Shown piece after piece: positions 2,513 to 42,034 of a stretch of 64,000 nt of DNA. The translations under genes and the position numbers were made by a program. Numbering within the stretch: the stretch's first letter is position 1; every line of letters begins with the position of its first letter. This DNA is from a phage: the sequence record PZ019086.1; one strand, given 5' to 3'. The notes below the pieces were generated by a model that did not search any database, was not told the DNA's origin, and worked only from the letters and a program-made list of their open reading frames with translations.

Positions 2513-2785
2513 TTATTTGTTTGTATACATTTCTAGATATCGATATACACCCTCAAAACCCTCGTTGAATTCGTCGATGAGGGTTTTCTTATCTTCTTGA
2601 GTTAATTCAGAAACAATTTTACGGAATGAATTCTGATTTAACTTTCTACCTTCATGCGTTACTCCAATCTCATTCAGAAATGCAATAAAATTAGCACGAT
2701 TCTCAACAATATCTTCTCTGGAAAATTTAATCAAAATAGACGCAACAGTAATAATTTCACGAACTGTATCAATGTTTTTATTCAT
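2513..2785 (-). CDS. asiA: Anti-sigma-70 factor AsiA
   Basis: 90 aa, sequence MNKNIDTVREIITVASILIKFSRED... matches remembered T4 AsiA; convergent with t. Confidence 0.9.
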   Translation of the reverse strand: MNKNIDTVREIITVASILIKFSREDIVENRANFIAFLNEIGVTHEGRKLNQNSFRKIVSELTQEDKKTLIDEFNEGFEGVYRYLEMYTNK

Positions 2786-2797
2786 TAACTATACCAC

Positions 2798-2950
2798 TCA
2801 ATTAGTTGACTTTATTATAATATCATCAGACACTTGATTTGTAAACTGGTCTGTGTTATTTTCTTCAAAAATTTTTTCTACGAATTCTTTGAACGACTCA
2901 CGTTCCTGAGCTACATTATGCTCGATTACCTTTTCAAGATTATGACTCAT
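2798..2950 (-). CDS. Small acidic ORF (50 aa), not in ORF track; ATGA overlap with arn stop
   Basis: Manual translation MSHNLEKVIEHNVAQERESFKEF...; start overlaps upstream stop (translational coupling pattern). Confidence 0.3.
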   Translation of the reverse strand: MSHNLEKVIEHNVAQERESFKEFVEKIFEENNTDQFTNQVSDDIIIKSTN

Positions 2951-3225
2951 TCGAAATAATCTTCAATTTCGTAATCATGGACATAAAACATTATAGTTTT
3001 TAATACATCATCAATACTTTTTCCTGGAGCTGGAATTACGTAAAAATATCCTGCTTTTGAGAGGTCTTTATAAGTTCCAACCAAGAAATCATTATTCTCG
3101 AGATGCAATTCTTCAACTAATTCATTAACAATTGAATGGTATAAATTTGGTAGAAACTTATATAGCTTTTCTAGAATATCAATTTTGATTGTGTATTGAA
3201 CCACAGACTGAGAATCAATAATCAT
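2947..3225 (-). CDS. arn: Anti-restriction nuclease protein Arn (acidic DNA-mimic type)
   Basis: 92 aa acidic protein at the T4 arn position and length. Confidence 0.6.
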   Translation of the reverse strand: MIIDSQSVVQYTIKIDILEKLYKFLPNLYHSIVNELVEELHLENNDFLVGTYKDLSKAGYFYVIPAPGKSIDDVLKTIMFYVHDYEIEDYFE

Positions 3226-3308
3226 AGACCTTCCCCTTATGTTTCTGTTTGCGATTAGATTCTTTAAACGCTTTCTTTTTATCTTTATGGACAGAAGCTT
3301 TATTAAAA

Positions 3309-3527
3309 TTATGTTTTGCGACTAAATTGTTCATAGTGCTGAATTACCTCTCTTAAACATTTGCATGTGAATGAAAACTTTTTAGCTACACCACATTCAA
3401 ATATATGTTCTCTTAAATCACGTGTATCAGTATATCCCATCTCAACGATAAAATGCCGTATTAGATTTTTATCTTTATCATTGAGAGAATTAAAATAATC
3501 GGATTTTGAATTAATTTCCCTGGCCAA
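3309..3527 (-). CDS. Hypothetical early protein (72 aa)
   Basis: ORF in co-directional early cluster between arn and motA. Confidence 0.4.
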   Translation of the reverse strand: MAREINSKSDYFNSLNDKDKNLIRHFIVEMGYTDTRDLREHIFECGVAKKFSFTCKCLREVIQHYEQFSRKT

Positions 3528-3807
3528 ATTGAATCACCTTCAGTTGACGTTTTAGTTCTTTTATCATTTCTTCGTTCATCGCAATATAAAGATCGCGTAA
3601 AGCAGGCTTTAGCATTCCATTTATTGGGGAACTAAATGGACATACATAATCTTTTCCTACGAGCTTTTTAGTGAATTCCATATCGCAGAACTTAAATCCC
3701 GGTTCATTGGCATAAATTCCCCAATTAGTTGACATCATTTTATTGGCATATTCCAGTGCCTGGATTTGATTCATAATTCCATCAATTTGAAACTTTTTAA
3801 TATTCAT
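3511..3807 (-). CDS. Hypothetical early protein (98 aa)
   Basis: ORF with ATGA-type overlap to neighbour. Confidence 0.4.
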   Translation of the reverse strand: MNIKKFQIDGIMNQIQALEYANKMMSTNWGIYANEPGFKFCDMEFTKKLVGKDYVCPFSSPINGMLKPALRDLYIAMNEEMIKELKRQLKVIQFGQGN

Positions 3808-17323: not shown

Positions 17324-17866
17324 TTAATTCAAAATAGCTACCACCGCACTACGAGGTACTACACTAAAATCACCTGCATGAACAACGTTCAGAAGTTCAA
17401 CACCATCTTCAATCCACTGGTCTGTTACCCAACCACAGACCGAAATAAATGGGGTCTTAATAGCTACTGCACGAGTTAGAAGGTCGGTAGGGTCTTGTTC
17501 TTCAACTTCTTGGAACAGGATGAACTCTGCTTCATAAACCAGGATTTTCTCTATTTTGTTATTGTCTAAACGACGACCGTGGACAATATAAGATTTAGTA
17601 AACCATTTACTTTTTTCAAAGTCTTCAACAGTAAATTCGCCTTCGCCAAAAACATCAGTCAAAATTTTATGGCCGGAAATCAAGGCATTAGTTTTAATTT
17701 CAGGTTCAACCAGTTTGTAGGTTTTGCCGATTTCAATAGCAGTAGTCATAGTAGGTTCCTTAATTTCCAGTGGTTTAACAGGGCATACATAAGTGCTTAC
17801 AACATCAAAATCAATCAGTTTAGCTACCGGATTTGGTGTGTATTCAGGATTATAATTAAATTTCAT
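17324..17866 (-). CDS. Hypothetical protein (180 aa), paralog of previous ORF
   Basis: C-terminal VTDQWIEDGVELLNVVH motif shared with 16750..17247. Confidence 0.5.
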   Translation of the reverse strand: MKFNYNPEYTPNPVAKLIDFDVVSTYVCPVKPLEIKEPTMTTAIEIGKTYKLVEPEIKTNALISGHKILTDVFGEGEFTVEDFEKSKWFTKSYIVHGRRLDNNKIEKILVYEAEFILFQEVEEQDPTDLLTRAVAIKTPFISVCGWVTDQWIEDGVELLNVVHAGDFSVVPRSAVVAILN

Positions 17867-17868
17867 AA

Positions 17869-18369
17869 TTATCTCATTTCAATAAAATCTACAAGTTCAG
17901 CATGGGATTTACGGAACATTACTTGGTGCCCGCCAATGATAACTTCATCTTCAGGAACTTCGTATACAGCGAGATAAAATCCTTTAGAAGATAATTCTTC
18001 CCGCTCTTCTCGTGTGAACCATCTCATCATATCATATTCACTAGCGAAAGCAAAATGATAAAGAGCTATAAACCATCCTGGAATATGATATTCTACTCCA
18101 ACATAATCTTTCTTGAACTTAGTATTAATTACTATATTAGCGTTTTTAACTAATAGTTTATCTTCATGTGGTACAGGAATTCTTTTATTATCATCGCTAT
18201 GATGCATAAAATTAGGTCTACTATAACCTACACGTAATAGCCACTCTTCGCTCCATGAATCTATTATACTCCTGTACGGCGTTATTTGAACACAAAGATT
18301 TCGACGTATTGTTATAGCATCTTCATAATTAAGAATACTAAAAGATGATTCAACACGATAAATTTTCAT
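17869..18369 (-). CDS. Hypothetical protein (~166 aa), possibly MotB-equivalent by position; track ORF start at 18408 is over-extended
   Basis: Early promoter -10 at 18397..18402 lies downstream of the track ATG; internal Met at 18369 has SD GAGGA. Confidence 0.35.
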   Translation of the reverse strand: MKIYRVESSFSILNYEDAITIRRNLCVQITPYRSIIDSWSEEWLLRVGYSRPNFMHHSDDNKRIPVPHEDKLLVKNANIVINTKFKKDYVGVEYHIPGWFIALYHFAFASEYDMMRWFTREEREELSSKGFYLAVYEVPEDEVIIGGHQVMFRKSHAELVDFIEMR

Positions 18370-25861: not shown

Positions 25862-26380
25862 TTAATAACCTCGGTCTTGACGTTCAAAATTATGCTTGTT
25901 CTTCAGATAATAAAGTTTAAAGATTTCTTCAGCAGTAAGACCGAGACCTTGGAACATGTTCAGAACGAAATGAAGAATATCAATCATTTCGAATTTAATT
26001 TCCAATTGGTCTTGTGGTGACAAATCAGTAATTAGAGTTTCACGACGTTCACCATGCTGTGACTTCCAAGGTTTCCATACAGCAGATGCATCTTTTTCAC
26101 CATTGCTCATACCGCCAAGAGAAGTCAGAAGTTCACGGAATTCATCATCAATGTAATCTTTCTGATTACGCAGCCAATCAACAACTTCACCTGCAGTAGC
26201 CAAATCATCAGGATGACGGTTATATTCAGGTTTATCTTTAGCTAAACGAACCTGCAGAGATTTCTGCATATCAAGCATAACCTGCAGCGGGTCTTTTTCA
26301 TCACCGAGAATATCCCAGTATTCATTTTGAGCTTTATCAGCGCCTTCGATCAGTTGTGAACATTCATTAAAGTAAGCCAT
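25862..26380 (-). CDS. 56: dCTPase / dCTP pyrophosphatase gp56 (MazG-like); true start at internal Met, track ORF over-extended to 26488
   Basis: 172 aa from MAYFNECSQ... with SD AAGGAAA; T4 gp56 is 171 aa; upstream 36 codons are low-complexity read-through of an AT-rich region. Confidence 0.75.
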   Translation of the reverse strand: MAYFNECSQLIEGADKAQNEYWDILGDEKDPLQVMLDMQKSLQVRLAKDKPEYNRHPDDLATAGEVVDWLRNQKDYIDDEFRELLTSLGGMSNGEKDASAVWKPWKSQHGERRETLITDLSPQDQLEIKFEMIDILHFVLNMFQGLGLTAEEIFKLYYLKNKHNFERQDRGY

Positions 26381-26453
26381 TATTTTTCCTTTCAATTCAT
26401 GGGTTAGTAGATTAATTATACAATAAATATATAAAGCAATAAGGAGGATATAT

Positions 26454-26654
26454 ATGGTACAAAAATTAATGGCACTTGTAGATGCCATAAAAGGTAATAA
26501 AAGACGTATAGCTTTTACTATTTCTGCTATGGTAGGAATTTTACTTTGGAATTTTGTTTTATCGCCAGTTGCTATTGCTCATGGTGTTAGTATTCCAGTA
26601 ATTACTCTCGATACATTCGTAGATTTAGCATTTGCTTTAGTTGGGTTAATTTAA
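26454..26654 (+). CDS. Plus-strand small membrane ORF (66 aa) in the 56-61 gap
   Basis: Canonical SD AAGGAGG 6 nt upstream of ATG; predicted TM segment(s); 3' end overlaps gene 61 stop by 4 nt on the opposite strand. Confidence 0.35.
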   Translation: MVQKLMALVDAIKGNKRRIAFTISAMVGILLWNFVLSPVAIAHGVSIPVITLDTFVDLAFALVGLI

Positions 26655-27679
26655 ATCTTAGCATATTTAGATAGCCGCATTTTGGCCATCAACCCTTGGG
26701 CAATATTATTTTTCATATATTCCATAATTTGTTCAGGGGTTGCACCTTCCTTTCTAATCATATCATTAACATCTTTTGATTTCCAGGGAGATTTGTCCCA
26801 AAACATAACCCTTTCTCCTGCATCAACCAATTTAGTCATTCGTTTAATAGTATCAGGGTGACGAGGTTCATTATCTAAAACCCATACACGTCTATCTTTA
26901 AATGGAACAATTTCTAGGTCTAATTGACCACCCGTAATAGCTATACCATTTTCAATAAAAAGTGAATCTATAGGTCCTTCTAGAACATATACATCACCAT
27001 CTTTGACTCGTTCAACTCCATAAATTTTTGTTGCCTCAGGATAAGCTTTGATTGTGATATATTTTTGAGGAGCATCTTTCTTTAATGCACGCCCTTGAAA
27101 AGACTCAGCTTTTCCATTAGCATTATAAATTGGAATAACAAGACGAGGCTCAGGTATTTCCTTTTTATATGTTCCTGGTGCTATACTATTAACTAATTTA
27201 GGCCATTCAGTTGTAAACCAAAGATATTTCCATTTATCCTTTGGAATACAACGGGCTTTTACATATTTTATAATTGGATGGTCTTCCGCCAGTTTATCTA
27301 ATCTAATGCATGACGGAAGAGATTTAATTATTTTCTTCTCAGGTTGTTTAGGAAGTTCTTTAGGTTTTTCTACTGGACGACTTTTACCTTTTTCTTTTCT
27401 TATTTCAAAGATATACTCACGATATAAATCAGGTTCAAACTCCTTTAAATATATTCCGATTGGTGCATGATAGTTGCAGTTATAACAATGAATATTTCCT
27501 TCATTATTATCACCATAATACCATCCACGGGCTTTATTTTGGTCGGTTTTTGAATCTCCACAAACAGGGCATCTAAACCGTAATTTAAAAGTTGAACTAT
27601 TATTTACTTGTGTGAATTTAGGTAAATGAGCCAATGCACGGTATGCAAACTCATTATCAATCCAAGGTATTGATGACAT
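26651..27679 (-). CDS. 61: DNA primase gp61
   Basis: 342 aa as T4 gp61; N-terminal zinc ribbon (CPVCGD...CYNC) and Toprim (EGPIDSLF). Confidence 0.9.
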   Translation of the reverse strand: MSSIPWIDNEFAYRALAHLPKFTQVNNSSTFKLRFRCPVCGDSKTDQNKARGWYYGDNNEGNIHCYNCNYHAPIGIYLKEFEPDLYREYIFEIRKEKGKSRPVEKPKELPKQPEKKIIKSLPSCIRLDKLAEDHPIIKYVKARCIPKDKWKYLWFTTEWPKLVNSIAPGTYKKEIPEPRLVIPIYNANGKAESFQGRALKKDAPQKYITIKAYPEATKIYGVERVKDGDVYVLEGPIDSLFIENGIAITGGQLDLEIVPFKDRRVWVLDNEPRHPDTIKRMTKLVDAGERVMFWDKSPWKSKDVNDMIRKEGATPEQIMEYMKNNIAQGLMAKMRLSKYAKI

Positions 27680-41276: not shown

Positions 41277-41284
41277 TATAAATA
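41277..41284 (+). promoter_or_regulatory. Late promoter box TATAAATA (plus strand) upstream of the HNH endonuclease gene
   Basis: Exact TATAAATA 33 nt upstream of ATG at 41318. Confidence 0.55.
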
Positions 41285-41317: not shown

Positions 41318-42034
41318 ATGAATTATAAACTAATTTATGAAAAGTTAATCTCTAATGCTAAATCTCGAAAACTTGATTGCTATACTGAATCTCATCACAT
41401 TATACCACGCTGTTTAAATGGTAGCGATGATGCTTCAAACTTAGTAGATTTAACACCAGAAGAGCACTATGTAGCTCATCAACTTTTAGTAAAAATTTAT
41501 CCTTCTGAACCAAAATTAGTCTATGCTGCTAACATGATGACAGTTTCTACGAAATACGCTAAACGTAATAATAAAACTTTCGGCTGGATTCGTCGTAAAC
41601 TCTGGGAAATAGAAAAGAATAAAGAGTTCTCCCAAGAGACACGAAAGAAAATGTCCGATGCAGTAGCTAATAAAGCAAGACTAACTTGTCCACATTGCGG
41701 TAAGTCTGGATTAAGCGGGAATATGAATCGATGGCATTTTGATAACTGCCCAAATCACCCCAATCCTAAAGTTAGACCGCCAATGTCTAAAGAACACAGA
41801 AATAATATCTCAAACGGGCTTAAAGCAATCGTTCTTGAAGAAACAACCTGCGAATTCTGCGGAATGATAGGCAAGAAATGCGTTATCGCAGCGCATAGAA
41901 ATTTCTGCAAGAAAAATCCAAATGGACGCAAGAAAACTGAAAAGACTGGTACTTGCGTCCATTGTGGTAAAGTTACCACTTTCGGAAATTTATCAAGATG
42001 GCATAATGATAATTGTAAATATAAACCTAGCTAA
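41318..42034 (+). mobile_element. Free-standing HNH homing endonuclease gene with three C-terminal Cys/His zinc-finger-like repeats
   Basis: 238 aa; HNH motif ESHHIIPRCLNGSDDASNLVDLTPEEHYVAH; repeats CPHCGK...RWHFDNC, CEFCG...HRNFC, CVHCGK...RWHNDNC; opposite strand to all neighbours; 3' end overlaps gene 46 stop by 8 bp. Confidence 0.75.

Follow-up and report, generated by a model that had tools for sequence, protein, structure and literature searches.

The closest described relatives of the gene treated here are small reading frames of other T4-like phages. RB69ORF029w (RB69) and VR7ORF033w (VR7) are annotated orthologues which belong to the protein family PHROG 2024, and RB32ORF030w, present in RB32 and RB51, agrees with our reading frame in family, length, synteny and strand; the RB51 copy is annotated as "hypothetical protein, similar to RB69ORF029w". 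A literature search on the ORF names found no paper naming the gene.

For the timing of expression the comparison is with T4 itself. Early and middle transcripts of T4 have a single polarity, while either strand is used by late transcripts only (Geiduschek and Kassavetis, PMC2988020). The late promoter box occupies positions -13 to -6 (PMC1524935), and position -13 is poorly conserved among T4-like phages (Nolan et al., PMC1524935). The exact sequence TATAAATA is found in 32 of 50 listed T4 late promoter sites, and 9 have an A at -13 (PMC2988020); AATAAATA is the commonest accepted variant of a late promoter, of a class documented there (PMC2988020). A dRNA-seq data set of T4 infection exists (GEO GSE255091), and our literature search found no T4 ribosome-profiling study.

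The reading frame between genes 56 and 61

We analysed a stretch of 64 kb of the phage sequence record PZ019086.1, which is called the window here. It is T4-like, belongs to Tequatrovirus and has its top DNA matches in EC121, ECp13 and P922 (96%). The features at the locus were the following:

25862 to 26380, minus strand: gene 56 (dCTPase), the left neighbour
26422 to 26429, plus strand: AATAAATA, a variant T4-type late promoter box (A for T at -13), 24 nt before the ATG
26435, plus strand: predicted late transcription start (A) giving a 19-nt leader, placed by taking the box as -13 to -6
26441 to 26447, plus strand: Shine-Dalgarno sequence AAGGAGG, with a 6-nt spacer (atatat) to the ATG
26454 to 26654, plus strand: coding sequence of the 66-aa protein, stop included (ORF listing; match to PHROG 2024)
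26651 to 26654, 4 nt: TTAA palindrome, the overlapping convergent stops of the 66-aa ORF and gene 61
26651 to 27679, minus strand: gene 61 (DNA primase), the convergent right neighbour

The original prediction, made from the letters of the window, had singled out a plus-strand ORF of 66 codons among minus-strand neighbours, preceded by AAGGAGG at a distance of 6 nt and overlapping the stop of the primase gene 61. This sequence-level observation on 26454..26654 was confirmed in full, as coordinates, strands, ribosome binding site and the overlap of 4 nt were all verified in the window. The 66 codons run from the ATG at 26454 to 26651, and TAA follows at 26652-26654. The other credible genes near the ORF are on the minus strand, too. 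Several spurious plus-strand ORFs of 60 to 97 aa are found nearby in the ORF listing, and thus the length of the 66-aa ORF is by itself weak evidence for a gene. The heptamer AAGGAGG has just two copies on both strands of the 64-kb window, each located directly 5' of an ATG, i.e. that of the holin gene t and that of the 66-aa ORF. On the minus strand, a long ORF starting at 26488 merely extends gene 56 at its upstream end, and the ORF listing of the window held no minus-strand gene under the 66-aa ORF.

The 66-aa protein matched PHROG 2024 (unknown function) with E = 8.8e-30, residues 2-66 aligning with positions 1-65 of the 65 positions of the profile. The same family was matched by 12 of 12 diverse members tested, which came from six genera. 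With tblastn the protein was detected in 693 phage records, nearly at full length in 686 of them, and 719 records matched the region; hence essentially all relatives that share the flanks also carry the protein. Tequatrovirus copies were 85-97% identical and those of Mosigvirus and Gaprivervirus 44-52%. Queries with divergent members added Dhakavirus (Bp7, JS10), Kanagawavirus (PEi20), Jiaodavirus (Klebsiella phages), Gelderlandvirus (STP4-a) and Moonvirus (Merlin). Loci of all these genera, Tequatrovirus, Mosigvirus and Gaprivervirus included, were inspected for synteny, and in every one the ORF was flanked by genes 56 and 61 and opposed them in strand. Overall the family comprises about 700 records from at least nine genera of the Tevenvirinae. 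A fold match hints at a member in Enterobacter phage CIP9, which we take to be a Karamvirus. IMG/VR contributed just 7 further loci. Among 1.84 billion representative proteins a profile search found 7 matches, six of them family members or fragments and one a weak match to a protein of 1255 aa. Because of this result we consider the family to be limited to the T4-like phage group.

The exact protein of the window is already present in public collections, where its names are "hypothetical" with the exception of one "Holin" in UniRef. It differs from the commonest Tequatrovirus sequences at a few residues (D10, R17, S46 and others). The 66-aa ORF belongs to an already annotated, function-unknown family and is not peculiar to the present phage. 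As a sequence feature the gene is ordinary, since hundreds of T4-like genomes already list it as a hypothetical protein and it has a PHROG family of its own.

According to the original prediction T4 has different content in this interval, so that the present phage would carry a different, compact cassette. Neither statement held. T4 possesses the same ORF at 17738..17938 on the plus strand of NC_000866.4, within the 309 nt that separate dam from gene 61. The two proteins are identical in 60 of 66 residues (91%), and the T4 copy has the same ribosome binding site, the same spacer and, where it abuts gene 61, the same overlap of 4 nt. T4 differs by an insertion of dam that parts gene 56 from the ORF, and by the upstream box, which is GATAAATA. 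Because the dam-61 gap of T4 holds the same ORF, the window represents the common arrangement without dam and not a different cassette. The RefSeq feature table of T4 (NC_000866) does not contain the 66-aa ORF, while the newer T4 record OZ209057 annotates a hypothetical protein. Since the reference record omits the ORF, studies based on RefSeq gene lists would miss this gene. The PEi20 copy is likewise unannotated (approximately 1974-2159 of the PEi20 locus extract).

Pairwise pN/pS (dN/dS) was mostly 0.1-0.3 within Tequatrovirus, Mosigvirus and Gaprivervirus. The variable columns at codon positions 1/2/3 numbered 8/3/16, 6/1/13 and 7/2/13 in the three genera, respectively. Pooled pN/pS of the window copy against eight relatives was 0.21 and there were no in-frame stops. 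Yet control ORFs antisense to real genes covered a range from 0.04 to 2.4, and pN/pS was rejected as the sole test of coding. As such values can be misleading, we base the case for coding on two points, namely that no gene overlaps the ORF and that the protein is conserved across genera. Since the minus strand has no overlapping gene here, the purifying constraint belongs to the 66-aa ORF itself. W32, N33, P38, G44 and P48 were invariant across six genera at 18-50% identity, and residue 53 was Asp or Glu in all inspected sequences. The protein motif is thus kept between genera whose flanking DNA is barely alignable. In addition, the ribosome binding site of the relatives examined always contained the core GGAG, extended to GGAGG except in Mosigvirus (AAGGAGA). 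On these comparative grounds we conclude that the 66-aa ORF is a genuine, conserved protein-coding gene. The original view of a plausible expressed small membrane-protein gene, with a strong ribosome binding site, a strand opposed to that of its neighbours and an overlap with the primase stop, is supported. The prediction would have fallen had close relatives with the same surroundings lacked the ORF, yet they keep it.

OE5505 has a deletion of three codons in the ORF which keeps the frame and speaks for a real gene. Two records deviate from the general pattern. In ECCR664 a frameshift is located in an A-run of the ORF. The T6 record (AP018814) shows ATT at 2501-2503 of the T6 locus extract, where all other copies have ATG. 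The exceptions in T6 and ECCR664 may mean that the gene is dispensable, or they may be record errors. The T6 label "putative head morphogenesis protein" was given no weight, because names in this record are visibly wrong (gp56 appears as ferredoxin and soc as terminase small subunit). A dual-start motif (M1 and M6) was also considered and rejected as it occurs in Tequatrovirus only.

A candidate late promoter

The strand of the 66-aa ORF opposes that of genes 56, 61 and 41, i.e. it is opposite to the early and middle transcripts. No sigma-70-type promoter was found on the plus strand before the ORF. The original prediction had noted the lack of an exact late promoter box and had called expression uncertain. 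It is correct that no exact TATAAATA precedes the ORF. Yet the variant box at 26422-26429 does, and this part of the prediction stands only for the consensus.

The core ATAAATA is rare in the AT-rich 64-kb window. It was seen 9 times while 38 copies were expected (about fourfold fewer), and 100 of 100 shuffled sequences had more. Similarly, TATAAATA was seen 3 times with 9.9 expected. The depletion of both fits a selection against stray late promoters. Five of the nine ATAAATA sites sit 18-33 nt 5' of a start codon. Those before genes identified by Pfam belong to holin t (AATAAATA, 18 nt), soc (TATAAATA) and gene 49 (AATAAATA, 30 nt), all of them late genes of T4 that are embedded in early regions or have late promoters. 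Thus in t, soc, gene 49 and the 66-aa ORF alike the ATG follows a [T/A]ATAAATA box at a distance of 18-30 nt; the late expression of the three former is experimentally known, as are their functions, whereas that of the 66-aa ORF is predicted. Of the five sites, one is the box of the 66-aa ORF, and the fifth is an exact TATAAATA at 41277-41284 (plus strand), 33 nt upstream of an ORF of 238 aa at 41318-42034 (plus strand), for which a Pfam search gave no match.

Holin t shares both the box and the ribosome binding site with the 66-aa ORF, its upstream elements being:

1830 to 1837: AATAAATA
1845 to 1851: AAGGAGG
1856: ATG of holin t

The common pair of elements suggests that the two genes are of the same expression class.

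In seven genera NATAAATA was found 12-33 nt 5' of the ATG, with the motif at differing aligned positions. The boxes upstream of the ORF were:

T4: GATAAATA
Mosigvirus: AATAAATA
Gaprivervirus: CATAAATA
Kanagawavirus (PEi20): CATAAATA
Jiaodavirus: GATAAATA and CATAAATA
Dhakavirus Bp7: TATAAATA, the exact consensus
Gelderlandvirus: ATTAAATA only
Moonvirus: ATTAAATA only

Several points count against a late promoter. The box of the window is not the exact consensus, T4 has GATAAATA, Gelderlandvirus and Moonvirus have ATTAAATA alone, and in some genera the box is merely 12-16 nt away from the ATG, which would result in a very short leader. Judged from the promoter elements and the strand, the 66-aa ORF is most likely expressed late. 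RNA polymerase bearing gp55 would start late in infection from AATAAATA (26422-26429), near 26435, and the leader of 19 nt with its strong ribosome binding site would allow efficient translation of the ORF.

Predicted topology and candidate roles

The AlphaFold2 model of the 66-aa protein had a pLDDT of 75 and contained helices at residues 2-13, 16-42 and 52-63. The protein may be divided as follows:

26454 to 26507, plus strand: residues 1-18, N-terminal helix and basic cluster (AIKGNKRR), predicted to be cytoplasmic
26508 to 26579, plus strand: residues 19-42, a single transmembrane helix or an export signal, with W32, N33, P38 and the small-x-small site A40-I41-A42
26580 to 26651, plus strand: residues 43-66, predicted periplasmic tail, HG..P....D/E... 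followed by a hydrophobic helix, with G44 and P48

Residues 19-42, approximately, are the only membrane-competent segment, and a marginal one with a Hessa sum of about 0 to +3.7 kcal/mol. The C-terminal segment scored +5 to +11 kcal/mol and has charged residues in several genera, e.g. E plus R or K in the tails of the PEi20 and Jiaodavirus homologues. A second transmembrane segment in the tail was rejected for both reasons. Lys and Arg are distributed asymmetrically, with 4-6 in the N-terminal flank of the helix in all genera and 0-1 in the C-terminal flank, which argues for an N-terminus in the cytoplasm and a tail of ~24 residues in the periplasm. Thus sequence and model predict an N-in topology with one marginal helix and an acidic tail of ~24 residues in the periplasm.

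Searches for relatives of assigned function gave no guide to the role of the protein. Pfam yielded sub-threshold noise only (DUF6124 with E = 0.09 and YwcE with E = 0.02, one member each), and NCBIfam had no match. A profile search of the PDB returned chance matches only (E ≥ 0.5). The AlphaFold2 model matched nothing among the folds of the PDB, and in BFVD it matched members of its own family only. By analogy, the protein may be compared with MgrB and AcrZ, small bitopic membrane regulators of bacteria, which are similar in size, have a short tail outside the cytoplasm as well and cross the membrane with a single helix that contains polar or helix-breaking residues; a relation in sequence or fold was not found. 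These regulators suggest an action by binding to a larger membrane protein.

We consider it probable that the ORF is a conserved, late-expressed gene for a 66-residue inner-membrane protein with a single helix. The basic N-terminus would stay in the cytoplasm and the marginal helix with its W-N-x4-P motif would cross the inner membrane, so that ~24 residues with the invariant G-x3-P and an acidic residue would face the periplasm. Contacts between helices or in the periplasm might then be made with another envelope protein of the late phase, e.g. one concerned with the timing of lysis or the integrity of the envelope. A role in the late envelope or in lysis timing via binding of another membrane protein is a guess, made with low confidence. 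It is suggested by the late timing, the membrane location, the motif of a helix-packing type and the promoter and ribosome binding site in common with holin t. With conservation in at least nine genera and five invariant residues the gene is a well-defined target for knockout and topology studies in a model phage. By-products of the analysis are the annotation gap in the T4 RefSeq record, the evidence for late expression from the variant promoter and the definition of the invariant residues.

Residues 1-42 might instead be a long cleavable signal peptide, in which case leader peptidase would cut after A-I-A and free an active peptide of ~24 residues, acidic and hydrophobic, into the periplasm. 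Small or permitted residues were present at the aligned positions -3 and -1 in all nine genera (AIA, LVA, ALA, AAS, AST, ALA), and around the small-x-small site (A-I-A / H-G here) Pro was invariant at -5 and Gly at +2. Furthermore, a pairwise comparison of residues 19-38 with the export signal of RI, the antiholin of T4, gave an E of 0.009, and 8 of 20 residues, FVLSP among them, were identical. The conserved site and the likeness to RI make cleavage by leader peptidase a real alternative, which we hold to be possible but on the unlikely side. The similarity to RI is short, weak and compositionally biased, and it is limited to the hydrophobic signal, i.e. the first 20 residues of RI with FVLSP and then small-x-small. 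Both proteins appear to be small envelope proteins of the same phage group, as far as the predicted location of the 66-aa protein goes. Yet RI has a folded periplasmic domain of 73 residues, whereas the tail of the 66-aa protein has just ~24. In addition, the hydrophobic stretch of ~20-24 residues and the charged N-region of 18 residues are both long for a cleaved signal. The invariant W32 and N33 lie within the hydrophobic stretch, which is unusual for a targeting signal and favours a functional membrane helix.

Rather unlikely is the proposal that this near-universal protein of enterobacterial T4-like phages is a hitherto unrecognised component of the late envelope programme, which might act either as a partner of the T holin / RI machinery of lysis inhibition or as a peptide of 24 residues released by leader peptidase.

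The single-helix membrane protein might also be an accessory of conflict outside the core life cycle, serving for example late superinfection exclusion or countering a membrane-acting defence of the host. Many genes of this kind are located in the region (sp, dmd, 61.2, dam, homing endonucleases), a T4-type and a Bp7-type of the gene exist, in tandem in VR7 and with the second copy decaying in relatives of VR7, and the gene is apparently dispensable going by the T6 and ECCR664 records. We regard this as quite unlikely, because synteny is fixed and selection purifying over at least nine genera, while accessory genes of an arms race are usually patchy. PADLOC profiles of defence and counter-defence gave no family at E up to 10. 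Moreover, the known exclusion proteins of T4, Imm and Sp, are made early and not late.

A small holin, a pinholin-like pore former or a regulator of the holin in T4-type lysis would be in line with a small membrane protein that has a gene of late type and at least one predicted transmembrane segment, and with the promoter variant and the 7-nt ribosome binding site being identical to those of holin t. The OE5505 copy is called 'Holin' in UniRef and a KP1079 record has 'putative holin'. Yet both labels are isolated and look automatic among hundreds of 'hypothetical protein' entries, and the annotations of Metamorpho and Citrobacter phage Merlin (CPT_ locus tags) say hypothetical. The holin families of Pfam had no match to the 66-aa protein family, and homology to described holin families was likewise absent in NCBIfam and the PDB. 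Holins typically have a charged, hydrophilic cytoplasmic domain at the C-terminus, whereas here the C-terminus is hydrophobic with 0-1 Lys or Arg and the cluster of charges is N-terminal. T4-type phages already have a full set of holin, antiholins, endolysin and spanins. Taken together a holin function appears very unlikely.

That the stretch is an untranslated element, i.e. a late antisense RNA to primase 61, a terminator of gene 61 or part of the gene 56 promoter or origin, is exceedingly improbable. In its favour, the convergent gene 61 overlaps the ORF, so that any late transcript would be complementary to the mRNA of the primase, the ORF contains a hairpin of the minus strand which resembles a terminator (26488..26469), and certain frames opposite a real gene can show low pN/pS. 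But this artefact is inapplicable with no gene on the minus strand under the ORF, substitutions at third codon positions dominate in three genera, the protein motif is kept at 18-50% identity where the DNA can no longer be aligned, ribosome binding site and start codon are retained in relatives, an Rfam scan of the locus gave no relevant match and the ORF persists in several genera which have lost the overlap with gene 61.

Variation at the borders of the gene

T4, RB51, Mosigvirus, Gelderlandvirus and Moonvirus share the 4-nt stop overlap with gene 61. Where an insert, be it a homing endonuclease or something else, parts the ORF from gene 61, the stops do not overlap. In VR7, P8, Bp7, RZ and Jiaodavirus the overlap is lost yet the ORF is kept, and an antisense effect on the primase mRNA is thus not its main role.

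VR7 has a second, unannotated paralogue of the Bp7-type directly 3' of VR7ORF033w (approximately 2701-2970 of the VR7 locus extract, plus strand), in which neither the usual stop nor the conserved acidic residue is left. At the position of this second paralogue RZ has ATG TGA. In Yersinia phage P8 there is only a remnant of the paralogue, mis-annotated as 'DNA packaging ATPase'. The paralogues of VR7, RZ and P8 therefore point to two divergent types of the gene, T4-type and Bp7-type, with the redundant copy decaying.

The hairpin of the minus strand mentioned above (ATGGCA...TGCCAT followed by a T-run, 26488..26469) lies downstream of gene 61 and within the first codons of the 66-aa ORF. It was kept in all examined Tequatrovirus copies and was absent from the other genera.

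Finally, the junction between the ORF and the primase gene is a recurrent point of insertion for homing endonucleases and other small genes. The inserts seen were:

Yersinia P8 locus extract, 2780 to 3547: insert annotated as homing endonuclease
Locus L018, 2172 to 2927: insert annotated as homing endonuclease
RZ locus extract, 2872 to 3621: insert annotated as hypothetical protein
Locus L021, 2121 to 2471: insert

In place of an insert, Jiaodavirus has a strong bidirectional terminator hairpin (ggggcttcggcccc) at this junction.
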